Below are positions 42,036-64,000 of a stretch of 64,000 bases of DNA, piece after piece. A program made the position numbers and the translations under genes. The stretch lies in assembly GCA_963836185.1 (NCBI GenBank), contig CAWIIQ010000001.1:2009424-2073423 (forward strand). The letters run 5' to 3'. Position 1 is the stretch's first letter; each line of letters opens with the position of its first letter. Origin of the DNA: Candidatus Krumholzibacteriia bacterium (GTDB taxonomy: Bacteria; Krumholzibacteriota; Krumholzibacteriia; Krumholzibacteriales; Krumholzibacteriaceae). Under the pieces are notes generated by a model. It was not told the origin of the DNA. It ran no database searches and worked only from the letters and a program-made list of their open reading frames with translations.

Positions 42036-42141
42036 ATACCGTAAGGATAATATAGAGAAAGCCGGCCGGTGAAAACCGGCCGGCTAAAGTCCACTCATCG
42101 CTTTCCGCATCGCGTCATCCCAGACCCCCCCGAACAGCACC

Positions 42142-43298: not shown

Positions 43299-43300
43299 AA

Positions 43301-44256: not shown

Positions 44257-44275
44257 GATAATAATCTCCTATACT

Positions 44276-44794: not shown

Positions 44795-44814
44795 TGCCGC
44801 TTGTCCCCCTTGCG

Positions 44815-45423: not shown

Positions 45424-45445
45424 ACCCTTCTCTCCGGGGCGATAC

Positions 45446-46186: not shown

Positions 46187-46227
46187 ACCATCTACCTCTA
46201 ATCACTCAGGTCTCAAATGAAACGGAC

Positions 46228-46719
46228 CTACTTGAAACGATCATCCGATTCACGTTCCGATACGGTCTTCCTTGCCTGTTCAAGCCATCCCGTGCGGATG
46301 ACCTTAGGGCTGTCAAACTCCGGCACGTACGGTTTGATGTCAAGCAGCGGGGTCCCGTCAAGGATATCAACGTTCTGGATGTACAGCACGCCGTTTTCGA
46401 CCCTGTCCAGCTGAACAACGGAAAGACCAATCTGGTTCGGACGCTTCGGAGCCCGGGTGGCAAAGAGTCCCCGCAGCTCCGAATCCATGAAAGGAACGAC
46501 ATGTAGGTTAAAGCCGCTGCTGCGGTCAAAATAAAAGAGAAGGATGATGTGTGAGAAGCCATCGAGATCTTTCAGCCCCGCCCGATACTCCTCGAATACC
46601 TCGACCGTGCCGTGAATATCTGCCGCGCCGGCTGGTTGCACAGGCATCCCCTCCGGCACGTTGAAAGGTGTGTGTATGATCCCGATAGGCTTTACTTCAA
46701 TCCTCATCGACTCCAGCAT
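46228..46719 (-). CDS. tsaA: tRNA (adenine37-N6)-methyltransferase TrmO/TsaA (YaeB family)
   Basis: ...PIGIIHTPF...GFSHIILLFYFDRS...RPNQIGLSVVQL...LDGTPLLDIKPYVP... is the YaeB/TsaA signature. Confidence 0.8.
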   Translation of the reverse strand: MLESMRIEVKPIGIIHTPFNVPEGMPVQPAGAADIHGTVEVFEEYRAGLKDLDGFSHIILLFYFDRSSGFNLHVVPFMDSELRGLFATRAPKRPNQIGLSVVQLDRVENGVLYIQNVDILDGTPLLDIKPYVPEFDSPKVIRTGWLEQARKTVSERESDDRFK

Positions 46720-48137
46720 ACTGTCCTTTCCATACGATTCCGTCCTTTATAACGGTCTTTCCTCCCAGGAGCGCTTCAGGGCTTTTGAGCGGACTCTCAT
46801 CGAAGATAACGAAGTGAGCTCTCTTACCCGGTTCGATCGATCCGAACCTGCTCGAGATCTCCATCACCTTCGCGCTTCCGTACGTGGCGATCTGAAGAAC
46901 GGATGCCATTGAAAGGCCCGCGTCATGCAGCAGAAGCATCTCGGAAAGAACGGCCATTCCCGGATCCACCGTGTCCGACCCGATGGCCAGCTGGACACCT
47001 TCCCTGTGCATGAGCGCCACGTACGAAGCCATCACGGCGTAGCCGCGTCTCGCGCGCTCCAGGTCCTCGCCGGCCCAGGCCGACGTATCGTCGAAATCGC
47101 CGATCGGGGGCGAATCGATCACTGTCAACCCCAGAGGCTTCGCGATGGCATGAAGGGTCGGTGTCACAGTAGCGCGGCTTTTCGACAGCCTCCTGATAAG
47201 CGCTGTCATGATCTCGTTCTCTTCGCCGATCTCGTTGAACTGCTCGGCAGTCGCCATGAAGAAGGCGCCGCGAGTGTCGCCCTCCAGGATCTCATGGATA
47301 GAGCGCAGGATGATAGCCTGAGCGGCCTCTCCCCCGAGAACTTCGGGAGCGAGAGTGAAGGCGTGCTCAAAATGTCTCAACCCGAGATCCAGCGCAGCTC
47401 CGATCGTGAAGATACCGCGGTCGATGTGCGCGAAAGGGACCATGTCGAGCTCGAGCGCCTCTCCCAGCGCGGCCCGGAACTCGGGCTCCCGGAGCCGCCA
47501 GTAGAGCTTAATATACCTGAATCCGGCGTCGTGGTACTGCCGGACCCGCTGCGCAGCCTCCAGCGTGTCTCGCACGACCGCGTGGCCCTGATACGGTGTG
47601 CGCCCCTCCTCGTGTGAGACAAGAGCTCCACCGCATGGAAAGAAGTCCGGAGCGGAGGGGTCAGGTTCCATCCAGGCCTTCATCAGCGGCAGATAGCTCT
47701 CGCTCGACCCGGCATCCCGCACGACCGTCACGCCGAAAGGCAGATAAGCCTCCGAGAATACGCGGCGGTATCCGTGCTATGGAGTCGGGCGCCATGTTCA
47801 GGTCCGCGATTCCGCCGCCGCCGGCGTTGAACGATGTGGCCAGAACATCGATGAGGTGACCGTGGGTATCTATAAGTCCAGGTGTGAGCAGCCGCCCTCC
47901 GGCATCGATCACACGGCGGGCCCGCGAGCCCTCAAGCGACTCCGATCTCTGCACGTCCCTGATGACCCCGTCGACGACGGAGACCGCCACCCCTTCCATC
48001 ACGACGCCTCTGCGGGCATCAAAAAGCGTTGCGTTGGTTATAAGCAGATCGACATCGGCCGATGCCGCGTCGCAGGCGGCAAAAAGCAGGATTGCGATCA
48101 CCACTGATACTGACCTTCGCACCATACTTCTCTTCAT
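46697..48137 (-). CDS. Amidohydrolase-family protein (secreted), interrupted by a frameshift near 47740-47760
   Basis: The N-terminus (signal peptide, GLIDTHGH metal site) lies in ORF 47661..48884 and the C-terminus in ORF 46697..47731 (...AYLPFGVTVVRDAGS...HAGLSMASVLQIATYGSAKV...). The frames differ by 1 nt within a GC-rich ccgccgcg stretch. Confidence 0.6.
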
Positions 48138-48175
48138 CGCGATTTTATCAAGGTCGGCTCTGGTGCAGCGTCTCG

Positions 48176-48884
48176 TCAGACCTTCTGCATATGCACGCAG
48201 GTGAGCTGATGTTTTTCTTCCGCGGTGACTTTCTTCGGGGGTATGATCTGGTTCGCCCACCGTCCAATGCTCCCCTTCCCAGAACTGCCAGTACTCCTGC
48301 TCTATAACTGCGCCCCCATTATCCCTGACCCATTTATCCAGCTCACTTCGCGAGAATGATTGCGTGATATACGGTGAATCCTGGCCGTAGCTTGAACCGG
48401 GCAGTTCATATACGTTTCTCACATAGCTTCTTTCGCTGTACGGACATGTCAATATGATATGACCACCGGGATTCAACAGGGAAAACATGTTCCGGACAGC
48501 GCTGTCCGGGTTTTGGATATGTTCAAGCACGCTTACACACGTGATCAGGTCAAACGTGTCCGACAGATGAGTCTTGACGATGTCGTCGTCGATGATGTGA
48601 TAGTGCCGATTAAACATTCCAGAGGGCCAGTAGTCGCTGACATTATCCGCTGCCGTAACAAGGCATCCGCAATTGCGCATCAGGTGCGGAAGTGCGGTCA
48701 GGCCGGTACCCACATCCAGGACCGTACGCGGATAGATCTCCCCAAGTTTCCTGAAGACGAAACTGAACTCGACCGGCCTCTCGTTGAATCGCGTGAAAGT
48801 CTGGGTCCTGAATTCTTTTTTGCATTTCCACCGCGGATACGTATTGAGCAGGTATTTAACAGCGTTTTCTGCTGACTTCAGCAT
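48176..48884 (-). CDS. Class I SAM-dependent methyltransferase (probable 1-nt indel at the G5 run 48237-48241 removes its stop)
   Basis: VLDVGTGLTA (motif I) and ...LLNPGGHIILTCPY... are present. In the assembled frame there is no stop before the amidohydrolase. Shifting frame at ccccc/ggggg gives ...EPDHTPKKVTAEEKHQLTCVHMQKV* ending about 40 nt before the amidohydrolase start. Confidence 0.55.
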
Positions 48885-48920
48885 CTGGACTCTCCTTATG
48901 TGGCCGCATTAGTTCATTCC

Positions 48921-49292
48921 CTATCGATATGTATACCCGAACGGAGTCAGAGAAAGCACAGCCAGTTTGATGTGCTGCTTCGCGAATGGTATCCCAATTA
49001 TAGTTATCGCGCACAGGACCCCGAAGATCACGTGTGTAGCCGCGATGTATATCCCCCCACACAGTATCCAGAGGATGTTCATTATGATAGACAGAGCACC
49101 CGGAGAAGGCTTGTTGAGAGATATCTCTTTGCCAAAGGGGAGAAGTGAGAGAAACGCCAGTTTCATCACCTGTATACCGAAGGGTATCCCGATGATCGTA
49201 AGGCAGAGCACCAGGCCGCCGATGAGATACTCGAGGAACAGGAAGATCCCTCCTCCAAGCAAGATCCACAGTATGTTTCCGATCAGGCTCAT
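48921..49292 (-). CDS. yccF: YccF-like inner-membrane protein (two DUF307 repeats)
   Basis: Two internal repeats (...NILWILLGGGIFLFLEYLIGGLVLCLTIIGIPFGIQVMKLA... and ...NILWILCGGIYIAATHVIFGVLCAITIIGIPFAKQHIKLA...) match the YccF architecture. Confidence 0.7.
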   Translation of the reverse strand: MSLIGNILWILLGGGIFLFLEYLIGGLVLCLTIIGIPFGIQVMKLAFLSLLPFGKEISLNKPSPGALSIIMNILWILCGGIYIAATHVIFGVLCAITIIGIPFAKQHIKLAVLSLTPFGYTYR

Positions 49293-49319
49293 GATCCCTT
49301 CCTCCTCTAAACAGTGAAC

Positions 49320-49733
49320 TTAATACAGCTTCCTGATCCTTGCCGAACAGATCGGAGCAAGAGATGTTGTAATCAGCACAAGCGCCCAGACTCTCCCACT
49401 GATCAGATCGTAATCCGAGAACAGCCTCTCCCACGAATGCCCGAACAGGTAGTGTCCCGCAAGGAACTCGAATGAGACTGTCATCAGCAACCATAATATC
49501 CCGATTAGTATCGCTTTGCCATTACTATCAGGCGCTATCCACCTGATCAGCAGCCACGCCACAAGAAAAATGAGAGCGCACAGGGTTACAGTGCTGATTA
49601 CATGGCCGGCGTATTCACCACTGACAGGAGCAATGAACGTGTTTCTGAGTATCCCGTTCAGAGTCGCTACGACCGACAGAATCAGCCAGACGATTATTGC
49701 TCGAAAATACAATTCAAAGTCCTCTTCAGACAA
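49320..49733 (-). CDS. Small inner-membrane protein (hypothetical)
   Basis: 137 aa with four predicted TM helices. Confidence 0.4.
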   Translation of the reverse strand: MSEEDFELYFRAIIVWLILSVVATLNGILRNTFIAPVSGEYAGHVISTVTLCALIFLVAWLLIRWIAPDSNGKAILIGILWLLMTVSFEFLAGHYLFGHSWERLFSDYDLISGRVWALVLITTSLAPICSARIRKLY

Positions 49734-49849
49734 GGCACGTCGTCTATCAGGTAACTATGCTCGATGAGGGGCAGGCTGACATATGAACAGATCACAAGCA
49801 GACAACATAGTGCCGTTGTGATAAGCAGACGCACAGTTGTCCTCTCTTT

Positions 49850-50200
49850 CTAGTCATCATCAAGTCCAAGCCACTTCCTGGCTTCTTCGATATTTCTGAA
49901 GACTTCGACTGTCAATGGTGAGTCCCGCAGTTCTGCGATCGTCTGATACATCCTCGCGAATCCGTACAGCAGGTCCGTACCAGCCACTATCGCCGATCTC
50001 ATCCCGGCCAGTTTCTCGCTATTGGCAGTGTCTATCTGGATATTGCGCTCAAGAGAACTTGACGAGCCCTGGACCTCCTCGATGCCGGACAGATCGACCA
50101 GTTCCCGCACTCCCGGCTTGATCCGGGAATCAGCCGCGACAGCCTCCCCCTGATCCCTCAGGTCCTTGTCGGTCACTACACCGAAGAGGCGCGTATACAT
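49850..50200 (-). CDS. Hypothetical small protein, paralog of 53210..53608
   Basis: Shares ...LVDL...ARMY...L...VF....EA..WLGL with the second copy. Confidence 0.4.
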   Translation of the reverse strand: MYTRLFGVVTDKDLRDQGEAVAADSRIKPGVRELVDLSGIEEVQGSSSSLERNIQIDTANSEKLAGMRSAIVAGTDLLYGFARMYQTIAELRDSPLTVEVFRNIEEARKWLGLDDD

Positions 50201-50455
50201 GACGTTCTTCTCTTCTCATACGTATACTCTACAGACATCTCTCACCTCTAAGATAGATGTTTTCATTCTGTTATATCTCCAATCAAATTCTCGACCAGGT
50301 GCTCAAAGGTGGTCGGATCGACACCGATTCCACCCCGAAACGGGTCACTCAGTGCCAGAATACTGTAAGTCATCTCAATCGCATGACCAAACACAAAAAT
50401 GATTATACCTTTCTCTGTCATATTGTAGTGAATCTCCCCGAACAGCTCATCAACA

Positions 50456-50842
50456 CTAGTACATGGGGTTTTCATTCACTCTTGTCTTTGGAATCTGCTG
50501 CATCGAGTCCCAATGCTCGACGATTTTGCCGTGTTCATCAAACCGGAAGAAATCCATCGTCACATACTCATCGCCTCCGGGCCATACCTGGTGAGTGTGA
50601 AGCGCAACCAGATCGCCTTCTGCAACCGATCGCACAAATTCAATCGACTTTTCAGGATACTCTGATGCCATTCTCTCGAAGTATTCGATGAACGGCTCTG
50701 GCCCGTTGCCGACCAGCGGATTGTGCTGGATGTATTCTGCGCCCACGTACTTCTCGACAGCTTCTCGAGGAGACCCTTCATAGGCGGTCTTATAGAACGC
50801 GATGGCATTTCTCTTGTTTGCTTCAATATCCTGAGTCACCAT
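50456..50842 (-). CDS. SnoaL-like / NTF2-fold protein
   Basis: ...KRNAIAFYKTAYEGSPREAVEKYVGAEYIQHNP...GDLVALHTHQ...EHGKIVEHWD... is the SnoaL-like polyketide cyclase fold. Trimmed to MVTQDIE. Confidence 0.6.
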   Translation of the reverse strand: MVTQDIEANKRNAIAFYKTAYEGSPREAVEKYVGAEYIQHNPLVGNGPEPFIEYFERMASEYPEKSIEFVRSVAEGDLVALHTHQVWPGGDEYVTMDFFRFDEHGKIVEHWDSMQQIPKTRVNENPMY

Positions 50843-51306
50843 ACCCTCCAATGCATGATTGCCGAGAATAGTAATTTCGCACACCGGGGGTCAACAGGAG
50901 AAGGATGCATCAAGAATCCGTCGACAGCTGTGACATATTGGATTGGGCTTCTAAGACCAATCAGGAATCCTTGAACGGTCAACCAGGCTGCGAGCGTCAC
51001 ACCGAGCACCAGCGTTCCTGTCCATGCCCAATGATATGTTTTCGACGGGAATACAGACGCTGCCCATTTCCATCGGGGACAGACCAATAGCCCATAAATC
51101 AGTGCCAAAGTCGCTGTTCCCATAATAACCAGTAAGAATAGACCCGGCAGATGGTAATCAGATACTGGCAATTGGGGCAGTAACTCATTCAGCTGAAGCG
51201 ATCTTCCCGAAGGATCGACCAGCATGGCAATGCCGCCATACAATCCACCCACACAGAGCAGAAGAAGCAGAAAAAGGATTACCCAGATGGTCAAGGGGCG
51301 GCGCAT
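50836..51306 (-). CDS. Membrane protein (hypothetical)
   Basis: 156 aa, four TM helices. Confidence 0.35.
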   Translation of the reverse strand: MRRPLTIWVILFLLLLLCVGGLYGGIAMLVDPSGRSLQLNELLPQLPVSDYHLPGLFLLVIMGTATLALIYGLLVCPRWKWAASVFPSKTYHWAWTGTLVLGVTLAAWLTVQGFLIGLRSPIQYVTAVDGFLMHPSPVDPRCAKLLFSAIMHWRVW

Positions 51307-51510
51307 GCATGTATCCCCTGTTATATTTGACTTTTCTTTTTATTTCCGCCAGTATAGTCAGTCACAGGTAATCGAATAATTTGTAATTATATAAGTAACA
51401 TATGCCATTTCCATACTACAACAATCTAAGCGCGACCAAGAAAGAGTATTTACAGGAAAAGCGATGCCATAGATAGCATTCCTGTCAAGGATCCGGACCG
51501 CATACACCCT

Positions 51511-52002
51511 GTGGCCATTAAACTCAAGAAGTCCCTTGAGGAGAATAAGCGCCGCGATGTAGCTAAGCATGCCTCTGAACTCTGCCGCCTGGTATGCAAG
51601 GGCCTCGACACAGAAGCACTCAGCGTAAAAATAAGCTCGAAGCGCCCATCAAGCGATACTGAAGAACTGCATGGCTTATATGAGTGGGCAGAGGGGGAAA
51701 CTCCTGTGCTTACTGTCTGGATGAAGACCGCCGTCAAGGGACAGGTGGTAGCGTTCAAATCATTCATCAGGACGGTACTTCACGAACTCTGTCATCATTT
51801 GGACTACACTCACTTCGATCTTGATGACTCTTTCCACACAGAAGGCTTTTTTAAAAGAGAATCTTCTCTCTACAAACAAATAGTCCCCATGGAGCTTCAA
51901 AAAAGTAAGCCAGATAAAAAGAAAGCCCCCCAAAAGAAGGCTGAAAGGCAAAAAAGTAAAGAGCCGGAACAAATGGATCTTTTTAACGCTTGCTTCGCCT
52001 GA
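51511..52002 (+). CDS. HExxH zinc-metallopeptidase-like protein (DUF45/SprT-like), possibly N-terminally truncated
   Basis: ...VAFKSFIRTVLHELCHHLDYTHFDLDDSFHTEGFF... carries an HExxH...H motif in a YgjP/SprT-like context. It starts with GTG and has no upstream ATG in frame. It is on the plus strand, opposite the surrounding genes, with AT-rich DNA upstream. Confidence 0.4.
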   Translation: MAIKLKKSLEENKRRDVAKHASELCRLVCKGLDTEALSVKISSKRPSSDTEELHGLYEWAEGETPVLTVWMKTAVKGQVVAFKSFIRTVLHELCHHLDYTHFDLDDSFHTEGFFKRESSLYKQIVPMELQKSKPDKKKAPQKKAERQKSKEPEQMDLFNACFA

Positions 52003-52035
52003 AAAGTCGTTTCGTGCAGACCAGGCGCCCGCGGG

Positions 52036-52605
52036 TTATTGCTCCCGCGCTGCTTTCCGAAACAACCAGGCCGACAAAAGCCACAGCGCGGCGAAGAACC
52101 CGGTCGATACCAGGATATCCAGCGGCCAGGTCGGCCCCGTGGAGCCGAATCCGGCGATCAGCGCGATCACGGCGACCAACACCTGAGCGAGCGCCGTCGC
52201 GAACAACGCGCGTGCCATTCCATGGGGCCGGAAGCGCGCGATGATGGCACCGATGATTCCGACGGCGAGCACCCCGCCATACATCAAGTTGGCGTCGTCG
52301 TGCTCAGTCCCGATGATGCCAACGGCACCGTTCACCCAGACGAGGATAAATGCTGCCGCGAGCGCAACGCCGACGGCGGATCGGTACGCGGTATTGCCTG
52401 TCTTCCTCGCTGCCAGCTCATAGGTGACACCAGCGCCGACCAGGAGGGCGCCGAGGACAGCGAAATCGGTCACATCCCAGACGACTTGATCGGTGACCTG
52501 CATCGCGAACAGGGGCAGCAGCATTATGAGCGCTGCGGCGGCCCAGGCTGCTATCCTCCATCGGTTCCGGCGCCGTCTGCCACCGTTTTCCGTGTTTCCT
52601 GTCAT
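52036..52605 (-). CDS. Membrane protein (hypothetical)
   Basis: 189 aa, 5-6 TM helices, Arg-rich N-terminus. Confidence 0.4.
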   Translation of the reverse strand: MTGNTENGGRRRRNRWRIAAWAAAALIMLLPLFAMQVTDQVVWDVTDFAVLGALLVGAGVTYELAARKTGNTAYRSAVGVALAAAFILVWVNGAVGIIGTEHDDANLMYGGVLAVGIIGAIIARFRPHGMARALFATALAQVLVAVIALIAGFGSTGPTWPLDILVSTGFFAALWLLSAWLFRKAAREQ

Positions 52606-52752
52606 CGCCTTGCCTCCGGTGATGCGTCTTGGCAGCCAGTCGCCATAAATGCCTCGTGAAACACCATGATGCCTTGTGGAATATTTTCACCTAACGGCAA
52701 GGCAAGGAATACTTCCTGTGGGATTCCTTCGTAAACCAACTCAGGATAATTT

Positions 52753-53175
52753 TTAAAAACCGAACTGTTTATAATAATTCGGATCACCGACAAGAGCGCA
52801 ACCCTGGGCGCCTAACTTTTTAAGCTGAGACAACCCTTCGTTAACAAGTGATTTCCCGATGCCTTGCTTTTGATACTCCGGCAAAACTGAAACCGGACCG
52901 AGGCCATACCAGCCTGTAGCGCCGTCAGAAATTGTTACAGGTGAAAAAGCAATATGCCCGATGACTTGCCCATCATTTTCTGCCACAAGGGAGATAGTCA
53001 AAACACCAGCTGCACGCAACGCATTTATTATGAAATGTTTAGTCTGGTTGCTGACTTGGACCGTCTCGAAGGCAGCTATTGTTACCTGGGTTATTGCCTC
53101 AATACCTGCGATCGTTTCTTTTCTAATAATCATTTCCATACTCCGGTTCCATTTCATAATTCTACCAGGATCCAT
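52753..53175 (-). CDS. GNAT-family N-acetyltransferase (start uncertain; possibly the Met at 53133)
   Basis: ...IGHIAFSPV...LGPVSVLPEYQKQGIGKSLVNEGLSQLKKLGAQGCALVGDPNYY... is the GNAT A/B motif. Confidence 0.65.
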   Translation of the reverse strand: MDPGRIMKWNRSMEMIIRKETIAGIEAITQVTIAAFETVQVSNQTKHFIINALRAAGVLTISLVAENDGQVIGHIAFSPVTISDGATGWYGLGPVSVLPEYQKQGIGKSLVNEGLSQLKKLGAQGCALVGDPNYYKQFGF

Positions 53176-53209
53176 AATCGTCGTGGCCGGAGCTCTGAGT
53201 CATCTTGAA

Positions 53210-53608
53210 TCATGAATTGTTCAGATCCTCTGGCAAGCCCAGCCATGCCAGGGCGGCGTCCATGGCACGGAATACCACAAAATTCCAATGCACAGAATCG
53301 GCAAGCACTTCATACATTCTGGCCAGACTGAAGGAGAGATCCTTTGTAGCCACAACGGCTACTTTTGTGCTTACTGTAATGCCGGTGAGTTTCTCTTCCA
53401 CTGATTCAGCAAAACGAAGAAGTGCTTCAGGGCTCCTGGAGCTGCTGTGTGTTTCCCGTAAGTCAACCAACATGTTCATCGGTGGTTTGAATGTATCGCT
53501 TTCAAAGAATGCTTTGTAGAAGGCAAGAAACTCGTCGTCCGGCACTCGCCCGGTATGCACAAAAACAACCAGTTTGTATTCCGGTCTGACATGAGATTCA
53601 ATGGTCAT
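53210..53608 (-). CDS. Hypothetical small protein, paralog of 49850..50200
   Basis: 132 aa with the shared C-terminal SLARMYEVLADS...VVFRAMDAALAWLGLPED motif. Confidence 0.4.
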   Translation of the reverse strand: MTIESHVRPEYKLVVFVHTGRVPDDEFLAFYKAFFESDTFKPPMNMLVDLRETHSSSRSPEALLRFAESVEEKLTGITVSTKVAVVATKDLSFSLARMYEVLADSVHWNFVVFRAMDAALAWLGLPEDLNNS

Positions 53609-53974
53609 AAGTCCTCCTTATATGATCCTGACTTCGTAGAGTATTTCATTTCCTCGCCACAAGAATTACTTCACCGCAATATTTCCTTAGTCCTGGAAAT
53701 AAGGCCAGCAAGATATTATCTGTTTTCTTTACAAGATACAGAAACCAACGAATGGGTGGAAATGTTAATCCGTTTCTAAAAATACGCTTACTCATAAAGA
53801 AAAGAGACATCAATTCAATGCTGTACATCAATCTTATAAGTCCTGGAGTCAAACGGCAGGCTGTCTTTTTATTCTATGTCGTGCTCTTCACTTTCAATGC
53901 GTTCCCATTCCTCAGGAGATATATGGCTATTTTTTGTCATCTTGTGATTCCTTTCTTGATCTTTTTACATTCGA

Positions 53975-54085
53975 TCCATTGTTCAGTTTCAGATGCGAAG
54001 ACGATTGCCCGGCCCGTGCCCCGCAGTCGCCGTGACAGACAAGACAGGCAGCTGAAGGCAGAAGCTGGATGACTTCATTTCCTCT
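53975..54085 (-). other. attC-like site (core conserved, ends degenerate)
   Basis: ...gttcagtttcagatgcgaag...gtgccccgcagtcgccgtgacagacaagac...cagctgaagg... shares the central core with the other attC copies. Confidence 0.4.
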
Positions 54086-55036: not shown

Positions 55037-56525
55037 TCACTTGATCTTCTTGGCCGGAATCTCCATGCCTTGGTAAAAGATGACCAGGCCGGTCACGGTG
55101 CCATCAGAATCTCGGCTGAAGGTGAAGTAATACGGCTTTCCGTCAATGAAGAATTCCGTCTCGGAGACGGCCATCACGTCGTCCCAGTAGTTCCCGTCCC
55201 CGGACCCGACCAGACGTCCATCCTCAACCTTCAGGAAGATAGAATCCCCTGGCTGCACTTCATACTGCCCGGTGACGGCATCGAAGATCGAGGGATCGAT
55301 CTTGACGGTCTTCCGCTCCGGCTCGGGTGTCGGTGGCGGAACCGAAGGGTCGAACGGCTGATACCCCAGCCATGTGAAGGGCGAACTCTGGTCACCGATC
55401 ACTCGCTCGACGATCAGGTGAGCGATGCTCTCGAAGTTGGAACTATTGCTCAGGAGGACAACCCCGATCTTCTTGTCCAGGTAGGTGACCGTGTAGTTCT
55501 CCCAGCCGACATCGTGACCCGTGTGGAAGAACGCCCGCCCGAACTCGGTTTCGAACAGGCCCCACCCAAGTCCCCAGGCGAGATGAATGGTCTTGTTATC
55601 CTCCGTTGTTTCGCCCGCCAACGGGCCGAACATTCTTTTGGACAGCACCGGGACCTGAGGCGCGAACATCTGATCGATCGAATCCTGCTCGAGACCCTCG
55701 CCACTCAGAACAGCAAGGAGTAGCCTCGCAAAGTCCGAGGCGGTGGTCAGCAAGGATCCGGCTGCGCTCGGTTTCGCGCCCCGGCTCTTCTTGATCCGTT
55801 TCTGTCGTTCCGTGTGCCCGTCGGCGTGGTTCGTTTCGAAAGCCGGCTCCCAGACATAGCTTGTGTGCGACATGTTCAACGGCATAAACAGACTCTCCCG
55901 GGCCAGTACATCCAGGGGCTTGCCCGTTATGTTCTCGACAACCATCTGCAGAAAGTGGAAACCCTTCGCCGCTGTAGCTGAACCGTTCGCCCGGTGGAAA
56001 GACGAACGTGAGTTCGCCTCCCTCCTACAGCAGGCGGAAATTGGGCCAGCCCGTGGTATGCGTCAACACACGGCGGGCCGTAATCTCCCGCATCCGAGGG
56101 TCATCCCTCAGATCCTCCCACTTCGGATACTCGCCGATGGGCCTGTCAAGGTAATCAACAAGGGGGCGATCCAACTCCAGCAATCCGTTCTCGACCAACT
56201 GCATGACCAGACAGGCAAAAGTCGGCTTGCTGAACGAGAGCCCGGGGAACACCGTCTCCCGATCCGGGACAAGTCCCGACGTACGGCTCTTCAGGCCCCA
56301 CTCGTGCTCGTAGACTACATCGCCGTCGTTGATGATCGCCATCTGAAGGCCCATCACGCCGGCGTTATCCATCACCGCCGCGACATACTCTTCTATTTCA
56401 CCTACGGAGACGTAGCTGTCGTCGATCCGCCTGATCTGCTGCCTGCCTGCATCGACCGTGCGCGAGTCGCATGCCCATAACATCGCAGTGACAAGCAGCA
56501 TGGGAATAAGGAGCATGGCTCTCAT
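55037..56525 (-). pseudogene. Beta-lactamase/transpeptidase-family serine hydrolase cassette gene, disrupted (in-frame TAG at ~56025 plus a 1-nt frameshift at ~55950)
   Basis: The N-terminal part has lipobox LWAC and SFSK (SxxK); the middle has ...PGERFSYSGEGF (the YxN-type motif region) in an unannotated frame; the C-terminal part has ...NITGKPLDVLARESLF... and HTG (KTG-like). The three pieces are separated by a TAG stop and a +1 shift. Confidence 0.6.
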
Positions 56526-56559
56526 GAATTCTTTCTCCGATCCGAAACGAGCGGGATTA

Positions 56560-56670
56560 CACTTTCGACAGCACATCGTTCAGCTTCAGCTGCGGTCGCC
56601 AGGCTGGCGCGGTGGGTGCCCCGCAGCCGCCGTGACAGCCAAGACCGCCAGTTGCATGCGAGGGTTAGGC
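56560..56670 (-). other. attC site
   Basis: cgttcagcttcagctgcggtcgccaggctggcgcggtgggtgccccgcagccgccgtgacagccaagaccgccagttgcatgcgagggttaggc; the R''-side GTTAGGC is at 56664..56670. Confidence 0.55.
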
Positions 56671-56674
56671 CTAC

Positions 56675-57118
56675 TTAAACCCTCTTGGGACGGAGAAACG
56701 CTACAACACCAAACGTTATTCCAACAAGAATATCCACTGCCGCACAGATAAATAGAATTGTCGATATACTTTGCATCGACGGGCCGTGAGATCGGTATGC
56801 TGAGGCCGCGTCGACAAGCGCTAATCCCAACATCAGAACAACGAATCCGACTACAACAAGACCAGATGTCGAGGCCCAACTTCGTTCCTTTGACACAATA
56901 ACTATAACCGCACAAGCAGTTGCTGCAACTAGGGTTAAACTAAAATTCACCCAGAATGCCGGCACGGCTCTATTTGGATTGGCACCAGGAGAGTTGTCAG
57001 ACTTGATCCCTGGGATCACACTCAGCGCCAATAATATGGCAACCAAGACGAGAAGAATCGTACAGCCCAGCAGCATTCGTCTGCTCGACTTGAGGTTCAT
57101 CTTCATAATTTCCTCCAA
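56675..57118 (-). CDS. Cassette-encoded membrane protein (hypothetical)
   Basis: 147 aa, 4 TM helices, flanked by attC sites. Confidence 0.45.
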   Translation of the reverse strand: MEEIMKMNLKSSRRMLLGCTILLVLVAILLALSVIPGIKSDNSPGANPNRAVPAFWVNFSLTLVAATACAVIVIVSKERSWASTSGLVVVGFVVLMLGLALVDAASAYRSHGPSMQSISTILFICAAVDILVGITFGVVAFLRPKRV

Positions 57119-57141
57119 ATCATGATCTCATTCCCAACTGG

Positions 57142-57237
57142 GCCAAACGTCTGTTTCAGCTGCGACAAGGCTGGCGAGCCGGTTGCCCTGCAAGCGGCAT
57201 GATAGTCGCAGTCGTCAGCTGCATGCGATAGTTAGGT
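57142..57237 (-). other. attC site
   Basis: gccaaacgtctgtttcagctgcgacaaggctggcgagccggttgccctgcaagcggcatgatagtcgcagtcgtcagctgcatgcgatagttaggt. Confidence 0.55.
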
Positions 57238-57255
57238 TGTGTGTCTCCATCTCTT

Positions 57256-57849
57256 TTACCTGCGATCGTGTATACGTGGCACGAACCGCGGAACCTTTTT
57301 TTTGTACTCAATATATCTCGTGCCGAAACGAGCCGTAAGTTCACGTTCCTCAAGCACTGCTATGACGAAGATCATCACCACGTAGACGCCCCACAGAAGG
57401 TAGAGTATCAGGTAGTTGGTCAGAAGTGCCATCGCCGCAATCGCTAAAGTCATCGCGACGAACCTTGGATGCCTCATGTGCGAGTACACTCCATCCTCCA
57501 CGAGGTTTCCAGGTTCATCCGGGGAGATCTCTGACAGTCCGAATGCCATCGTCTTAGGAACCCGGCGGTAGACCAGAATGTTGAGGTACGAAGAGCCCGC
57601 TATAAGAATACACGACACACAAGCCAACGGCCAGCGGAAGCCGTATCGAACGTGTAAGAGTGGATTGCGTACCAAATACATGCCCAGCATGACCAAGATA
57701 GTAGATGCGGCAACAATGAGCATGCTCCCGGTTGATCCCAGGCGCCGCCAGAATGAGACTAAAGAATGCAGCAGCACCCACGCTATCAGAGTTGCTGGAA
57801 CAGTGATGAGCGTAAGGAGCGCAAGGTAGTAGAGCACACTATCCTGCAT
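57256..57849 (-). CDS. Isoprenylcysteine carboxyl methyltransferase (ICMT)/PEMT-family membrane methyltransferase (cassette)
   Basis: ...DGVYSHMRHPRFVAMTL... and a C-terminal EE...T..FG..Y..Y motif in a polytopic membrane protein. Confidence 0.6.
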   Translation of the reverse strand: MQDSVLYYLALLTLITVPATLIAWVLLHSLVSFWRRLGSTGSMLIVAASTILVMLGMYLVRNPLLHVRYGFRWPLACVSCILIAGSSYLNILVYRRVPKTMAFGLSEISPDEPGNLVEDGVYSHMRHPRFVAMTLAIAAMALLTNYLILYLLWGVYVVMIFVIAVLEERELTARFGTRYIEYKKKVPRFVPRIHDRR

Positions 57850-57891
57850 CGGCTTTTATACCTCTCAAATGCCAGTTCGCCATGTGTCGCA

Positions 57892-57980
57892 ACCTAACGT
57901 TGGCTCCACCTGCAAAGACGATTGGCGCGGACAGTGCGCAAGCAGGGTACGTGACAAACGGCTTTGTGGGTGCAAGCTCT
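57892..57980 (-). other. Degenerate attC-like site
   Basis: Begins acctaacgttgg and contains the palindrome ccacctgcaaag...ctttgtgggtg. Confidence 0.3.
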
Positions 57981-57982
57981 TG

Positions 57983-58624
57983 TCAGGTCGTTTCCTTCGC
58001 TCCTTCGAGATAGACGGCGTCCATCGAAAAATCTTCCACCGGCTCGACAACACATCGGATGATCGCGAACCCGGCTTCTTGTGCCCATGTCGCCATTTCG
58101 TTGCTGCAGTATCTGAGAGCAACAATGTCCGACTCGTCTCCGTAGTCGATAGCCCCGCTGCCCTCCCACGTCGCGACAACAAGCTGCCCACCGGGTCCCA
58201 GGATCCGATACCACTCACGGAAGGCCAACTCAACACCCTCGGAATCCAGGTGGTGCAGTGCAAAGAAATTCAGGACCGCGCTGCTTGATCCGAGACCAAC
58301 TGCGGACAGGTCGCGCATGTCACCGACGACAAGCTGCGCATTAGGCCCGAGCTTCTCCCCAGCAATTGATACCATGCGCGGCGACAGATCTATTCCCAAG
58401 AGCGGGCGATTACTATCGTAGCGCTCGTGGTACATGGAGAGCATATGCCCCGAGCCACAGGCGGTATCGACAACTGCGCCCGGTATATTCGCAATGCGAT
58501 CACGCAGGCGCCCCAAAATGTCGGCATAGACTGGAAGGCCTATTTCCGCGTCCATCATCTGCGCGTACGAGTCCGCCGTTTCCTCATATATTTTGCGTAC
58601 TTCATTTGTGGGCGATGGCTGCAT
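57983..58624 (-). CDS. Class I SAM-dependent methyltransferase (cassette)
   Basis: VVDTACGSGHM (motif I), LGIDLSPRMV, VVGDMRD and LGPGGQLVV motifs. The ATG follows the attC R' box by 13 nt. Confidence 0.7.
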   Translation of the reverse strand: MQPSPTNEVRKIYEETADSYAQMMDAEIGLPVYADILGRLRDRIANIPGAVVDTACGSGHMLSMYHERYDSNRPLLGIDLSPRMVSIAGEKLGPNAQLVVGDMRDLSAVGLGSSSAVLNFFALHHLDSEGVELAFREWYRILGPGGQLVVATWEGSGAIDYGDESDIVALRYCSNEMATWAQEAGFAIIRCVVEPVEDFSMDAVYLEGAKETT

Positions 58625-58637
58625 GATTTTCCAGTCG

Positions 58638-58733
58638 ACCTAACGTCAGCTTCAGCTGCGACAAGGCTGGCGGGCCGGTTGCTCCGCAAGCGGCATGACA
58701 GCCGTAGTCGCCAGCTGCAAGCAGTGGTTAAGT
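58638..58733 (-). other. attC site
   Basis: acctaacgtcagcttcagctgcgacaaggctggcgggccggttgctccgcaagcggcatgacagccgtagtcgccagctgcaagcagtggttaagt, with RYYYAAC/GTTRRRY ends. Confidence 0.6.
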
Positions 58734-58739
58734 GGTGCC

Positions 58740-58958
58740 CTAATTCTTGGACTGGCGCACGCACCACATGATCGCAAGCACTGCGCCTAGAACGCATCCG
58801 GCCCCGAACACCATGCCTAAAAAGACGGCGTGAGGTAAAGTAAGCCGCCAGAACAATACGTTAGTTTCCACAGGCTGAAAGTTCTGCAAGACGATTATGG
58901 CACCAAGTACACCTAATACGATCGCAACGATCATCTTGGCGCGTGATGGTCCTGTCAT
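58740..58958 (-). CDS. Small two-TM membrane protein (cassette)
   Basis: 72 aa, AGGAGG RBS, two hydrophobic helices. Confidence 0.45.
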   Translation of the reverse strand: MTGPSRAKMIVAIVLGVLGAIIVLQNFQPVETNVLFWRLTLPHAVFLGMVFGAGCVLGAVLAIMWCVRQSKN

Positions 58959-58993
58959 ATTCCCCTCCTATTTGAGGCCCATAGTAAATATCC

Positions 58994-59056
58994 ACTTAAC
59001 GCTCCCCCTCAGCGGCGCGCCGCAAGCGGCGCGTCCGCTGCAGCGGGTTGTTAGGC
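58994..59056 (-). other. Short attC site variant (63 bp)
   Basis: acttaacgctccccctcagcggcgcgccgcaagcggcgcgtccgctgcagcgggttgttaggc; the arms cagcggcgcgccgc / gcggcgcgTccgctg pair with one extrahelical T. Confidence 0.5.
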
Positions 59057-59100
59057 CGCACCGCCACTGCGGGAACTTGGCAGCGTGATTTCGCCATTCC

Positions 59101-59646
59101 TCAGTTCTCTTGCATCGCTCCAAATCCCGTATCGTCCGCCTCGTGCATGTCGGGGACGTTGATGGCGTGCTCGCCCAGCCATTGGTTCACCTCGACTCGC
59201 TGGAAGCGTCCCTTGGCCCCGACAAGGAACCGGATCAGCTGACCGGGTTTGGCTGGCAGTACCCGGCCTTCCTTCACCACGATGGTGCCGTTGACGATCA
59301 CAAAGGGGATGCCGACCGGCGGCAGCCCGTTCTCGCCCTCCTTGTAGGTCGCGCGGGCAGCGACGGTGGACGGGTCAAACAGCGTCAGATCGGCAACCTC
59401 CCCGACCTGCACGCGTCCGCGCTCCTTCATCGCATCCAGCCCGGTGTCCCCCAGGTGCTTGGCGGTCCAGTAGCTCAACTGCGCCAGGGTGAACCCTTGC
59501 CTTCTTGCATAAGCGTGGCCATCATCAGGGCAAAAACCATGAAACCTATTCCTCACGACGGAAAATCCGGTGCTGCATGCTAAGGAACGCCGGCTTTCCA
59601 GACTTGTCACGCAGCAACTGACCAACCGTTCCCCGGAAGGGACCAT
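59101..59646 (-). pseudogene. C-terminal fragment of a D-aminoacylase/amidohydrolase-family gene (cassette remnant)
   Basis: ...LAQLSYWTAKHLGDTGLDAMKERGRVQVGEVADLTLFDPSTVAARATY...PFVIVNGTIVVKEG... corresponds to only the C-terminal ~130 aa of this family. The ORF's 5' end overlaps the upstream gene by 100 nt. Confidence 0.45.
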
Positions 59647-60985
59647 CTGTCATGATAACCATGTCTTTACCCGCGCTACTCATCGAAATCGGGGGAGGGT
59701 TCTCATAAACTTTCATTCCTCCTAATGGTTTGTATAAACGCTCAGCCATGAGCTGGTCGTTGTCAAAATAGAGTTTGTAGTCTTCATTATCCCCTAACCA
59801 AAGACCTTCGAAAGGTTCAAGGGAACTACGATCTGCAGTGATTGCAACTAAGGGTATTTTCTCAATATCTAAATACTTTTTGAGAGCCAGTGCGATTACC
59901 GCATCGTACACCTCAATACCACGGTCGCTGTTCGTAAGAACAACAATCCCAAATTTCTTATCCGGTGCAAACAGCATCTTGGCGGTAGCCCCTCCCGACC
60001 GACCGGCATGAAAAACGGTTCGCACACCGCCGATATCCTCAACGAACCACGCAACGCCGGTGTGTTCACTCAGCTCGCCTTCGACCAAGGGACTGTGCGC
60101 CAGGTCCAGCAACTTTGGAGACAACAGTTGACTGCCGTCCTTGTCCTTACCGTCAAACTGAAATTGCATCCACTTCATCATATCACTGACATTACTGAGT
60201 ATGGCTCCGGCCGGATAGACGCTGCGCGGAAAAGGCGCAAAGCTGACCTGAGGTTCGGACGTCCCGTCATATACTCCGGCATGGCCAACAGCAAAGCGGT
60301 CTGCCATTAGTTCCGCCATGAAGAAGGAGGTGTGCGTCATGCCCAGGGGCAGAAACAACTCGTCCTTAACTTTTTGTTCATAAGATTTTGCACGGCTTAC
60401 GCCTTGAATGAGACGTCCTGCAATGATGTAGTTGTTATTGTTGTAGGCCCAGACCTCGCCATAAGGTGTGCGTTGTGGTAGGAATCGAAAAGACCGCACG
60501 GCCTTCTCCAAGGCATCTTCCCCCGAACTGGGATCCTCAAAGTAGTCGCCTTGCCAGCCAGTCCGGTGCTGGAAAAGGTCGATGACCTTCGCCTTTTCTG
60601 AAGCCTCTCTATCCAGGACCGAAAACTCCGGGAGATACTTCCGAACCGGGGCTTCGAGGTCGAGCTCTCCGCGTTCTGCCATTTTAAGAACCACCGTGGC
60701 CGTAAAGGGCTTTGTCGTGGAACCGATATAAAACACGGTGTTTTCAGTGACAGCCTGAGGATCGTCAAGATTGGTAATGCCGATGCCGGCCATTTGGACC
60801 TTGCCATCGTGAATGATCCCAATGGCTATACCTGGGACTTTGATCTCGTCCATGAGCCGCTGAGCTTCGCTCTTGATTTCCTCAAACCTCGTGTCCAGGT
60901 TTTCCTGTGCAAATGCCTGTTGGACTGTCATCAATGACGAGACTATTACAGTAAAAAACAGTGCCATGTTTCGTTTCATTGTCAT
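59546..60985 (-). CDS. Beta-lactamase/esterase-family serine hydrolase (class C / EstB-like), secreted (cassette)
   Basis: Signal peptide MTMKRNMALFFTVIVSSLMTVQQAFA, SxxK as GSTTKPF, a YNNNNY (YxN) region and HAG (KTG-like). The start was trimmed to the Met with an AAGGAGA RBS; the ORF-track extension to 61120 is read-through of the attC. Confidence 0.65.
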   Translation of the reverse strand: MTMKRNMALFFTVIVSSLMTVQQAFAQENLDTRFEEIKSEAQRLMDEIKVPGIAIGIIHDGKVQMAGIGITNLDDPQAVTENTVFYIGSTTKPFTATVVLKMAERGELDLEAPVRKYLPEFSVLDREASEKAKVIDLFQHRTGWQGDYFEDPSSGEDALEKAVRSFRFLPQRTPYGEVWAYNNNNYIIAGRLIQGVSRAKSYEQKVKDELFLPLGMTHTSFFMAELMADRFAVGHAGVYDGTSEPQVSFAPFPRSVYPAGAILSNVSDMMKWMQFQFDGKDKDGSQLLSPKLLDLAHSPLVEGELSEHTGVAWFVEDIGGVRTVFHAGRSGGATAKMLFAPDKKFGIVVLTNSDRGIEVYDAVIALALKKYLDIEKIPLVAITADRSSLEPFEGLWLGDNEDYKLYFDNDQLMAERLYKPLGGMKVYENPPPISMSSAGKDMVIMTDGPFRGTVGQLLRDKSGKPAFLSMQHRIFRREE

Positions 60986-61035
60986 CTTGGGTTCTCCTTC
61001 TTTGATGTTGCTCTGGTTTGGGTCTTTCTCTTTTA

Positions 61036-61132
61036 GCCTAACGTGAGCTTCAGCTGCGGGCGCCGGCTGGCGCGGCGGGTGCTCAGCAGCCGCCGTGACG
61101 ACCAAGACCGTCAGCTGCAAGCAGAGTTAGGA
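61036..61132 (-). other. attC site
   Basis: gcctaacgtgagcttcagctgcgggcgccggctggcgcggcgggtgctcagcagccgccgtgacgaccaagaccgtcagctgcaagcagagttagga. The TAA stop of ORF 61127..61855 lies inside the R'' box. Confidence 0.65.
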
Positions 61133-61855
61133 TGTTGCCTTTTCTATTCTCACACCCTTTATCAGAAGCCACAGACAAAGTGACAGTTCTCCGACAAGTG
61201 GTGCAATATATATTGGTGCTATGCCCCCTGTATAGTCTGGCCAGAGAAATAGCGTAAAGCTACCAATCACATACCCTATTCCCGCAGCATACATGAGAAT
61301 GCCTAATATCTTTGGGAAATACTCAGAATTGGACAGCAAATAGCCAAGAAACAGACAATGAAGACCAAAGAACACTAGGCCAAGATCATACCCATGTTTG
61401 TGAATATTCAGGAACATCAAAGCTATTGAATTTAGCTGTGATGAGTCAAGAGAACTGAGATAGTCAGTGCCTTTGAGAACAATCAAAGCCGCAAAGTAAT
61501 TCAGCAGGTTCACACCATAGATCGCTGTTCCAGTCAGCCTGAATCCCGCTGAAACGAGGGAACCTGTTTTGCTCACAGACCTAAGCAGAATATACAGCAT
61601 TATGGCTACAACCACATCACAGAGGAATATTACCAGGTCACAGGCGAAACCAACTCGAAACAAACTTTCAGAAGCTAGAATGTTGTTTGCAGTCGCAGCA
61701 GCATCACCATGCACGATCAGGCTTCCCCGGACGAATACTTCGCTGAAGAGGCCAAAACCGATGATTATCAAGTATAAGACACCTGTGATCCGGGCATATG
61801 TCACAGTGGACATCTCAGATAGACGTGTCATCATATCCCCCTCCTTCCAATCCAT
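61127..61855 (-). CDS. Cassette-encoded polytopic membrane protein (hypothetical)
   Basis: 242 aa, ~7 TM helices. The ATG is 5 nt after the R' GTTAGG of the upstream attC. Confidence 0.5.
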   Translation of the reverse strand: MDWKEGDMMTRLSEMSTVTYARITGVLYLIIIGFGLFSEVFVRGSLIVHGDAAATANNILASESLFRVGFACDLVIFLCDVVVAIMLYILLRSVSKTGSLVSAGFRLTGTAIYGVNLLNYFAALIVLKGTDYLSSLDSSQLNSIALMFLNIHKHGYDLGLVFFGLHCLFLGYLLSNSEYFPKILGILMYAAGIGYVIGSFTLFLWPDYTGGIAPIYIAPLVGELSLCLWLLIKGVRIEKATS

Positions 61856-61859
61856 ATCA

Positions 61860-61957
61860 TCCTAACGTGAGCTTCAGCTGCGGTCGCCGGCTGGCGCGGC
61901 GGGTGCCCCGCAGTCGCTGTGACAGACAAGACCGTCAGCTGCAAGCGTGGGTTAGAC
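61860..61957 (-). other. attC site (first in the array, nearest attI)
   Basis: cctaacgtgagcttcagctgcggtcgccggctggcgcggcgggtgccccgcagtcgctgtgacagacaagaccgtcagctgcaagcgtgggttagac. Confidence 0.65.
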
Positions 61958-61989
61958 CGTTCTTTTATCTCATACTTCTGTCAACTAGG

Positions 61990-62394
61990 TTAAAACTTCT
62001 GAACCCTAAAATTGAGCGTTCCACTGTATTGACTAAGCACAAGGCGAATCTGCCAGGTACCGGAAGATCCGGTTAACGTTGTATCATTCAAGCTTGGTAC
62101 AAGGATCTTGTCGTAAACAGTCACGTCTCCTGCATCTTTGATTATCAGTCGCGCTGTTCCGTACGTAGTTGAAGTCGAGTGATTGACTGTGGCCTGTGTT
62201 CCAGTGTTGTTCCAATCATAGGGTAGAGTAGCAGTCCGGTTTATGACTCCGGTTGCTTGCAATTGAAAATTGTCAGTCACATTTGTCACTTCAGGTTGAA
62301 ATGGAGCCAGAGGATCATCGGAACATTGGTAAAATGTAGGAACACCGATAACGACGAGCAGGAATATTACTGTTTTAAAAGTGATGCGTTTCAT
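61990..62394 (-). CDS. First cassette: small secreted lipoprotein (hypothetical)
   Basis: Signal peptide with a lipobox (...TFYQCSDD), 134 aa. The ATG is 24 nt downstream of the attI core GTTAGAC. Confidence 0.5.
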   Translation of the reverse strand: MKRITFKTVIFLLVVIGVPTFYQCSDDPLAPFQPEVTNVTDNFQLQATGVINRTATLPYDWNNTGTQATVNHSTSTTYGTARLIIKDAGDVTVYDKILVPSLNDTTLTGSSGTWQIRLVLSQYSGTLNFRVQKF

Positions 62395-62500
62395 TGGATT
62401 CCTTTCTATTCTAGCTCTAGCGGTCTAACGTTATGTCTGTTGAACTAGGGTATTGGATATGACTGCGTGGGTGACTATGTATCCAATTTCTAGTTCTGGT
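62395..62500 (-). other. Candidate attI site
   Basis: The GTTRRRY core GTTAGAC (plus 62423..62429, read on the minus strand) sits between the intI stop and the first cassette. The adjacent inverted repeat ggtATTGGATAtgactgcgtgggtgactatgTATCCAATtt is a plausible IntI binding region. Confidence 0.4.
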
Positions 62501-62607
62501 TTATTATCTCATCAGTTTCCCAAAAATCAACAGCTTATCTGAAATACCTGGTGTGGCGGGTCAGGGATAGGCTGCAATATCTGTTTCGTAAATACTTTTT
62601 CTTATTG

Positions 62608-63640
62608 CTACATATCATCCAGAGGGCTCCTAACTCCCCTCCCTCCCCGGTTCAGGACGTGCGTGTAGATCATCGTCGCAGTGACATCCCGGTGCCCCAG
62701 GAGTTCCTGGATAGTCCTTATATCGTAGCCGTTCTCGAGAAGACGCGTCGCGAAGGAATGCCTGAAGGTATGGCAGGTCGCGTGCTTCGCAATTCCGGCG
62801 GCACGGACAGCTTCTTTTACCGCTCTCTGGAGGACCGTCTCATGCAGGTGGTGACGCCTGTACTCACCCGTCTCACCATCCCTGTAGAACCTCGTAGCCG
62901 GGAACACCCACTGCCATCCCCATTCCCGTGATGCTCCGGGGTATTTTCGGCTCAACGCATCGGGCAGGGCGACCGAACCGCGTCCCCTCTTGATATCTTT
63001 CCCGTGCTGTTCCCGGACCCGGGAGAGATGTTCCCTGAGACGATCCTTCAGGGTGAGCGGGAGAAGTGTCATCCTGTCCTTGTTCCCCTTCCCGCTCCTG
63101 ACTGTGATCTCGCCTCGCTCGAAATCAAGGTCCTTTATCCTCAGCCCGGCGCATTCCGGCAGTCTCATTCCCGAACCATAGAGCAGCGACGCCATAAGTC
63201 GCGGGGTCCCCTGCATGCGGCTCAGGACTTCCCGCGCTTCGCTATGAGTCAGGACGACCGGGAGCTTCTGAGGCCTCTTCGCCCTAACGATGCCGTCGAG
63301 CCATCCGAGATCGATTTTCAGCACATCCTTGTAGAGAAACAGTATCGCGCTTAGAGCCTGGTTCTGGGTGGAAGCGCTCACCTTTCTCTCCGTCGCAAGG
63401 TGCGAGAGGAACCGGGTCACATCTTCCTCTCCAAGTTCCAGGGATGTCTTTCCCGTTGAAGATGATGAATCGCTTGATCCATCTCCTGTACGAATCCTCC
63501 GTCCTGCGGCTGTAATGTCTGCCTTGATGGCATACTGACCTGGTCGAGGAGTCTGATCAGTTCCAGGAGTTTGATCTGGGCGATCTGAGTGGATCCGGGG
63601 ATCTTTTCTCGCGGACATACGACAGGCCTGTATCCGGCAT
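62608..63640 (-). CDS. intI: Integron integrase IntI (tyrosine recombinase); the N-terminal ~70 codons are disrupted by several 1-nt homopolymer indels
   Basis: The C-terminal 270 aa align near-colinearly with IntI1 (...[24 protein letters not shown]...[10 protein letters not shown]...[22 protein letters not shown]...[25 protein letters not shown] (the IntI-specific patch)...HTFRHSFAT...[23 protein letters not shown]...). The expected N-terminal motifs ([32 protein letters not shown]) are present but spread over three frames. The true ATG at 63640 has an AGGAGAG RBS. Confidence 0.8.
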
Positions 63641-63721
63641 CTTCTCTCTCCTGGTTGTAGTGGAGTCCCCCGACAGGAAGATTTTATTCTTTGTATGGTC
63701 GCACGTCAAGGAGCGGATAAG

Positions 63722-64000
63722 TCAGAAACAGGACGATCCATGAAAAAGGCCGGATGAAATATACCATCCGGCCTTTTCATTTGCTTTACTGAACCTCGAG
63801 GCTCTCAGCCCTGCTTGTCGTCCTCGTCTTCTGTGATCTCTTTCGTCTGTCGCCTGGATCTCGTCCTTCACGTCGGCTGAGGCTTTCTTGAACTTGCGCA
63901 TCGATTTTCCGATGGCCTCCGCCACTTCGGGGAGCCTGCGCGGCCCGAAGAAGATAAGGATGATGGCGAGGATGATCAGAAGCTCGGACCAGCCGAGCGG
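63722..64000 (-). CDS. tatA: Sec-independent translocase TatA/E-family protein, 5' partial at window edge
   Basis: ...LGWSELLIILAIILIFFGPRRLPEVAEAIGKSMRKFKKASADVKDEI... is the TatA TM helix plus amphipathic helix signature. Confidence 0.6.
   Translation of the reverse strand, partial: PLGWSELLIILAIILIFFGPRRLPEVAEAIGKSMRKFKKASADVKDEIQATDERDHRRRGRQAGLRASRFSKANEKAGWYISSGLFHGSSCF

Follow-up and report, generated by a model that had tools for sequence, protein, structure and literature searches.

Integrons in which the integrase gene lies on the same strand as the cassettes, referred to as reverse or inverted-integrase integrons, have already been described (PMC4909258, PMC3607928, PMC6557892). 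The reverse chromosomal integron of Treponema denticola ATCC 35405 goes back to Coleman et al. 2004, as cited in all three of these papers. Inverted-integrase integrons are also on record for Chlorobium phaeobacteroides, Blastopirellula marina and Kuenenia stuttgartiensis (PMC3607928, PMC6557892), the layout being listed for the first two in PMC6557892, and the Chlorobiaceae and Kuenenia taxa cluster with Treponema integrases (PMC3607928). Among IntegronFinder users the inverted-integrase integron is one of two standard types (bioRxiv 10.1101/2025.02.12.637893). The classical cassette promoter (Pc) is located in intI or attI and faces the integrase promoter (PintI), which results in transcriptional interference (class 1; PMC8876359).

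Here we analyzed a stretch of 64,000 nucleotides (hereafter, the window) and found an element that is very probably a sedentary chromosomal integron of this reverse type. Since the layout is already in the literature, the window integron belongs to a known type and is not a new kind.

Integrase gene

The integrase gene, intI, occupies positions 62608..63640 of the minus strand, from a homologue-supported ATG (63640..63638) to a stop codon at 62610..62608. Its product scores 418.5 bits with TIGR02249 (cutoff 265, profile positions 39-315), matches the Pfam profiles PF00589 and PF13495, and can be aligned continuously with VchIntIA (PDB 2a3v; 258 bits), including the IntI-specific extra segment. 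The same alignment shows that the catalytic R, K, HxxR, H and Y are all in place. The protein is a tyrosine recombinase of the IntI subfamily carrying the segment specific to it. Identity with IntI1, the class 1 integrase, is ruled out by the NF011946 equivalog model (325.9 bits against a cutoff of 435).

attC sites and cassettes

Covariance models placed at least eight attC sites between 53972 and 61959, the minus strand being the top strand in all of them. Model R1 was built from seven attC sites of the window, and the broader model R2 from 18 sites of seven other genomes. The eight sites score 24-106 bits with R1 and 37-72 bits with R2, each of them far better on the minus strand. A search combining regular expressions and folding returned mostly noise, and the covariance models were used instead. 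According to direct-repeat and folding searches, the family consists of G+C-rich imperfect palindromes of about 100 nt that follow minus-strand ORFs. The array thus fits the attC definition, which asks for two or more imperfect palindromes in one orientation, with RYYYAAC...GTTRRRY boxes and unpaired bases on one arm. The attC models agree with the first-pass annotation, which had assigned intI and all cassette ORFs to the minus strand and whose coordinates were correct throughout.

The strand assignment can be approached through the folded structures. Plus strands of five sites, folded as single-stranded DNA, have z-scores of -3 to -5.4 (attC1-4) and -1.7 (attC6). A T bulges from the 3′ arm, and so does a C located 6 nt closer to the R box. 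By definition, extrahelical bases belong to the R''-L'' arm, located 3′ on the bottom strand (PMC2727003); accordingly, the plus strand is the recombinogenic bottom strand, and the ORF-sense top strand is the minus strand. In cassettes 1, 2, 3, 4 and 6, all 7 of 7 positions of the attC R'' box are reverse-complementary to the 7-mer with which the cassette begins; in cassette 1, GTCTAAC (61957) pairs with GTTAGAC (62429..62423). This rule is strand-symmetric and fixes the cassette boundaries but not the orientation, and was therefore dropped as a proof of the latter. Orientation follows instead from the arm that bears the unpaired bases, the strand of the ORFs, the asymmetry at the attI end and the behaviour of the models in classical loci. 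As a side observation, the bottom strand has C, where G is usual, as the unpaired base closest to the R box. Classical relatives show both variants, C in L038 and L056 and G in L018 and L075, and the identity of the first unpaired base is non-essential (PMC2727003), so that we rejected the idea of this C being special.

All cassettes lie on the minus strand. Cassette 1 (563 bp, 61866..62428) consists of an ORF at 61990-62394 and attC1 (61860-61957; R1 match 61858-61959). The ORF starts with ATG at 62394 and encodes 134 aa with a lipoprotein-like signal and no Pfam match; the same cassette is present in the independent contig L085. Cassette 2 (824 bp, 61042..61865) encodes a DUF4386 protein (61127-61855) followed by attC2 (61036-61132; R1 match 61034-61134), and cassette 3 (2042 bp, 59000..61041) a beta-lactamase-family protein and a 181-aa ORF, followed by attC3 (58994-59056; R1 match 58992-59058), which is of a short, 63-nt type. 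A LapA-domain protein and attC4 (58638-58733; R1 match 58636-58735) make up cassette 4 (356 bp, 58644..58999). Cassettes 5-7 (56580..58643) contain two methyltransferase-type genes and one further gene, with attC5 at 57890-57990, attC6 at 57140-57239 and attC7, which has a decayed R' box, at 56569-56672. In the most distal recognisable site, 53972..54072, both R boxes are decayed, and no attC was detected beyond 53972 on the distal side. The array holds two beta-lactamase-family (PF00144) genes, one of full length (59546-61041, in cassette 3) and one split into two ORFs that cover profile positions 2-109 and 154-313 (55037-56576).

The zone 42000-54000 contains small minus-strand ORFs, including GNAT, SpoIIAA-like, nitroreductase and glyoxalase proteins and pieces of methyltransferases and amidohydrolases, and no detectable attC. 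These ORFs may be old cassettes that have lost their sites, or may be associated with another type of attC. The G+C content is lower, 0.49-0.51, at 48-56 kb.

Disrupted 5′ part of intI

The first-pass annotation had recognised the integrase correctly but read it as one intact ORF, missing its frame breaks. As sequenced, the catalytic part (62608-63441, 277 aa) is in a single frame, while the first ~230 nt contain at least five frame breaks between 63443 and 63604. The product begins in one frame (MPDTGL..., 63640), passes to a second at LLDQVSM and to a third at AIKA, returns to the first and continues in the third from LELGEEDV onward. Comparison with the related loci L001, L002 and L003 locates single-base deletions at 63533/2, 63521/0, 63450/49 and 63444/3 and, in the variable N-terminal extension, larger gaps of 34 nt at 63604/3, 4 nt at 63579/8 and 2 nt at 63555/4. 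The neighbouring housekeeping gene tatA has one extra base near 63850, which shifts its last 14 codons: frame 0 reads up to ...DEIQA and frame 1 continues as QTKEITEDEDDKQG*, TatA being intact in L001, L002 and L003. Altogether, about seven indels relative to these loci, at least six of them frame-shifting, fall into 63430-63860, across intI and tatA. The region looks like a patch of poor consensus.

Because the frame is broken as sequenced, the window copy of the integrase may be inactive. A true pseudogene next to a decaying remnant of an array, with a layout that is real but no longer working, is the alternative that survives best, and we regard it as a tentative but serious possibility. 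Besides the frame breaks of intI, it would account for the state of the distal array, with its decayed attC boxes, split beta-lactamase-family gene and truncated methyltransferase. Against it, all four single-nucleotide changes in intI are deletions within 90 nt, and the peptide pieces are near-identical to intact homologues. The indel in adjacent tatA, a housekeeping gene, favours consensus error over a true pseudogene, and the remaining 830 nt of intI as well as ~40 kb of long ORFs elsewhere in the window are unbroken. The independent contig L085 (ENA ERZ25039514 contig_67476), which covers window positions 62439-58984 with the first cassettes in the same order and 99.2% identity, differs by 6 indels (gap openings) in 3.45 kb, and the contig names are of long-read style. 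Moreover, the proximal attC sites and their boxes are perfect, and L001 has a different first cassette at the same junction. Taken together, the balance in our view tips slightly towards a local consensus error and away from a true intI pseudogene. In L085 itself, the DUF4386 gene is split by an indel.

attI and the cassette junction

The recombination site could be delimited by aligning the region between the intI stop and the first cassette in the window and in three related loci, L001, L002 and L003. The attI site spans 62423..62488 on the minus strand, adjoining intI at 120-185 nt beyond its stop codon, and the related loci keep this spacing to intI (about 180 nt). It comprises an inverted repeat, ATTGGATA (62452-62459) and TATCCAAT (62480-62487), whose halves are 20 nt apart, and two boxes, GTTCAAC and the core GTTAGAC (62423-62429, read 62429..62423). 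From the inverted repeat to GTT (62488..62427), a block of the form ATTGGATA-N20-TATCCAAT...ACGTT is invariant in the four loci at 49 of its 62 nt, the window being 90% identical to L002 and 84% to L003. Conservation amounts to 41/122 invariant positions in the 122 nt upstream of the block (58% identity to L002 and 51% to L003) and to 2/32 in the 32 nt beyond GTT. Although the flanks of L001 are 93-98% identical to the window, only 11 of 19 positions match past GTT. A block that is conserved up to GTT and divergent after it points to a common attI to which different first cassettes were joined at G|TT. Comparison maps the crossover point between G62429 and T62428, in agreement with the 7/7 complementarity to the R'' box. 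GTTAGAC, proposed from the sequence as a putative attI core, is accordingly the recombination junction, and the inverted repeat noted beside it is a conserved part of attI.

By a rough estimate, the chance of an 8-bp inverted repeat in about 180 nt is about 0.1. The repeat is nevertheless real, because it is invariant in four loci in which the neighbouring intergenic sequence is only 51-58% identical; it would be the place where IntI binds. A scan of metagenomes with the attI pattern matched only the L003 contig. On the minus strand, a repeated motif occurs as GCAGCCTATCC (about 62545-62556), soon past the intI stop, and as GCAGTCATATCC (62463-62474), beside the palindrome, and both copies are kept in L001-L003. 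By analogy with DR1 and DR2 of attI1, they may be accessory integrase-binding repeats.

One could argue that GTTAGAC is not attI but an R' box remaining from an attC that was lost, and that the integrase stands beside the array by chance, as the 7-mer fits the generic GTTRRRY consensus found at every cassette boundary. This reading is very unlikely: attC structure was not detected to the right of GTTAGAC, the 62 nt on that side are conserved across loci whose first cassettes differ, as is characteristic of attI, and the distance of about 180 nt from intI is conserved as well.

Promoters and the upstream side of intI

The first-pass annotation had considered a second, divergent attI/Pc region beyond the 5′ end of intI, with cassettes continuing to the right. 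No second attI, attC array or integron-like element was found there; the R1/R2 scan of the window yielded no attC to the right of intI, where only tatA and its putative terminator are found. The 3′ part of tatA, which runs off the window, occupies 63805..64000 of the minus strand. A G+C-rich hairpin with a 13-pair stem (63744..63777), located between tatA and intI, is likely the tatA terminator, and an equivalent hairpin is present in L003 at 9883-9914. An Rfam search yielded only a sub-threshold lncRNA match attributable to chance.

On the minus strand between 61800 and 64000, the promoter scan detected two sigma-70-like sites. The PintI candidate, TTGACG-17-TAAAAT (63681..63709), matches the consensus at 10 of 12 positions; TTGACG is invariant in the four-locus alignment A1, and L002 and L003 have TTGACG-18-TA(C/T)GAT in the corresponding position. 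Inspection by eye of the surroundings of PintI revealed no LexA box of the E. coli type. Between this candidate and the intI start, the stretch GTCGGGGGAC..CA.TA.AACCA (63650-63674; A1 columns 88-112) is invariant in the four loci. Its leader element GTCGGGGGAC (63665..63674, minus strand, A1 columns 88-98) may be a regulator site.

The second site, TTGATT-16-(TG)GATAAT at 62530..62503 (9/12 with TG), is the one recovered by the search for -35/-10 elements suggested for the minus strand of 62400-62700, and is a Pc candidate directed towards attI and the cassettes. Its conservation is partial, as the aligned sites in L002 and L003 deviate from the consensus and were not recovered by the strict scan. 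A Pc inside the 3′ end of intI had been envisaged, but no sigma-70-like site is present there, and the sole cassette-facing site is located past the intI stop. No minus-strand terminator was predicted between intI and the first cassette, so that read-through from intI is conceivable.

Based on these features, intI would be transcribed in the direction of attI, from its own promoter immediately past the tatA terminator. The integrase would join the folded attC bottom strand (the plus strand) to double-stranded attI at G|TT (62429|62428), placing incoming cassettes at position 1 with their ORFs on the minus strand. Transcription of the cassettes would start at a promoter in the spacer between intI and attI, result from read-through of intI, or combine the two. 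Regarding replication, plus-strand GC skew is negative in all 16 bins of 4 kb (window 1-64000), and the minus strand carries nearly all long ORFs. It is therefore probably the leading strand, and the leading-strand template would contain the attC bottom strands. Most sedentary chromosomal integrons (25/30) have the same replication arrangement (PMC5371416).

A bolder proposal is that PintI, intI, attI and the cassettes form an operon-like unit, with the long attI and GTCGGGGGAC serving as binding sites of a novel regulation and the cassettes being co-induced. The invariant attI is indeed long, with a pair of 8-bp palindrome halves around a 20-nt spacer plus the repeated GCAGYC(A)TATC motif; we nonetheless consider the proposal improbable. 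If it were true, first-position cassettes would be co-induced with the integrase by read-through, and the attI and GTCGGGGGAC sites would serve a regulatory scheme not seen in classical integrons.

Distribution of the layout among related integrases

L002 and L003, the two closest intact relatives, share the one-strand order tatA-intI-cassettes: each has a PF02416 (TatA_B_E) gene immediately upstream of intI, and the same attC family downstream on the same strand. In both loci, the 10 kb upstream of intI encode FolB, HPPK, PanB, PanC, HIT, LytR_C, DUF4321 and TatA, housekeeping genes that are all on the intI strand and have no attC match or attI-like boundary among them. The tatA-intI synteny does not continue in the next relatives, L005-L009. 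The nearest named relatives of the window IntI come from MAGs of Ca. Krumholzibacteria, Eisenbacteria, Acidobacteriota and Gemmatimonadota, Ca. Krumholzibacteria being the closest.

A scan of one genome per species yielded 80 loci with related integrases (55-73% identity); of these and the loci analyzed above, 40 could be classified with R2. In 21 loci, including the window, L002 and L003, attC sites are located downstream of intI on the intI strand; the other 19 are classical, with attC upstream of intI on the opposite strand. The only off-pattern match is one extra upstream plus-strand hit in L011. That R2 matches the opposite strand upstream of intI in the classical loci provides a cross-check of the strand assignment. 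In-frame stops interrupt the intI match in two loci of classical layout, L020 (Acidobacteria gp4 MAG) and L062 (Comamonas sp.), whose integrases are possible pseudogenes.

In a neighbour-joining tree rooted with VchIntIA and computed without support values and without the T. denticola IntI, all 21 co-oriented loci (21/21) and none of the classical ones (0/19) belong to one IntI clade, in which the layout would be inherited. The hosts in this clade are mostly Acidobacteriota, Vicinamibacteria, Eisenbacteria, Gemmatimonadales and similar MAGs. The clade also holds a Kuenenia stuttgartiensis locus (L057) and a Chlorobiaceae locus (L030), the latter having duplicated intI fragments and no attC matches, which leaves it outside the classified loci. 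In L030, a second, partial intI 3′ end with its downstream region is found at 10036-10458, about 3.2 kb after the first copy.

Several lines of evidence, namely, the strand of attC, the junction and the synteny with L002 and L003, agree in placing attI 3′ of intI and the attC top strand on the intI strand, as the first-pass annotation had suggested. It had assigned this layout to a minority of chromosomal integrons; the type is a known one, but "minority" does not fit, as all classifiable loci of the IntI clade are co-oriented. That a classical integron had its intI flipped in the genome or by the assembler, a one-off event that the break of L085 at 10 nt to the right of the attI junction might hint at as assembly trouble, is exceedingly unlikely given identical order and strand in L002 and L003/L004 from three other data sets, the same layout in 18 further genomes of the clade and a spacer between the intI stop and attI that is alignable along its whole length.

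Comparison with known systems

The window integron leaves the understanding of how integrons work unchanged. What it adds to reverse integrons, whose attI and Pc are poorly characterised, is a cleanly delimited attI with a crossover point mapped by comparison. Within this IntI clade, co-orientation is the norm and not an oddity. The host lineage is uncultured and related to Ca. Krumholzibacteria and Eisenbacteria, two phyla absent from a 2021 list of integron hosts (PMC8618304).

Comparison with T. denticola and with the Chlorobi-type genomes, drawn at the outset, turned out to be apt, as the same layout is found in the papers describing them. As far as the T. denticola integron is portrayed in the citing papers, it shares with the window the order intI, Pc, attI, cassettes and a GTT junction carried by the R box of attI; in both, the first ORF follows intI after a spacer of a few hundred nt, which measures 271 bp in one clone and 213 nt in the window. 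The likeness is one of described layout. The window differs in coming from another phylum, in its attC family (about 100 nt, G+C-rich) and in its broken intI frame. In the Chlorobium/Blastopirellula/Kuenenia type, intI and attC are on the same strand, as in the window, and the likeness to L030 (Chlorobiaceae) and L057 (Kuenenia) consists of placement in the same neighbour-joining clade only.

With classical integrons (class 1 and the V. cholerae superintegron with VchIntIA), the window shares the integrase family with its specific insertion, the attC anatomy (R''/L''/L'/R', with unpaired bases on the R''-L'' arm), the G|TT crossover and ORFs on the top strand. The difference resides in the arrangement. 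In classical integrons, intI is divergent from the cassettes and attI is located 5′ of intI, whereas in the window intI and the cassettes are co-oriented and attI is 3′ of intI. Since intI and the cassettes are co-directional, interference between convergent PintI and Pc is impossible in the window integron.
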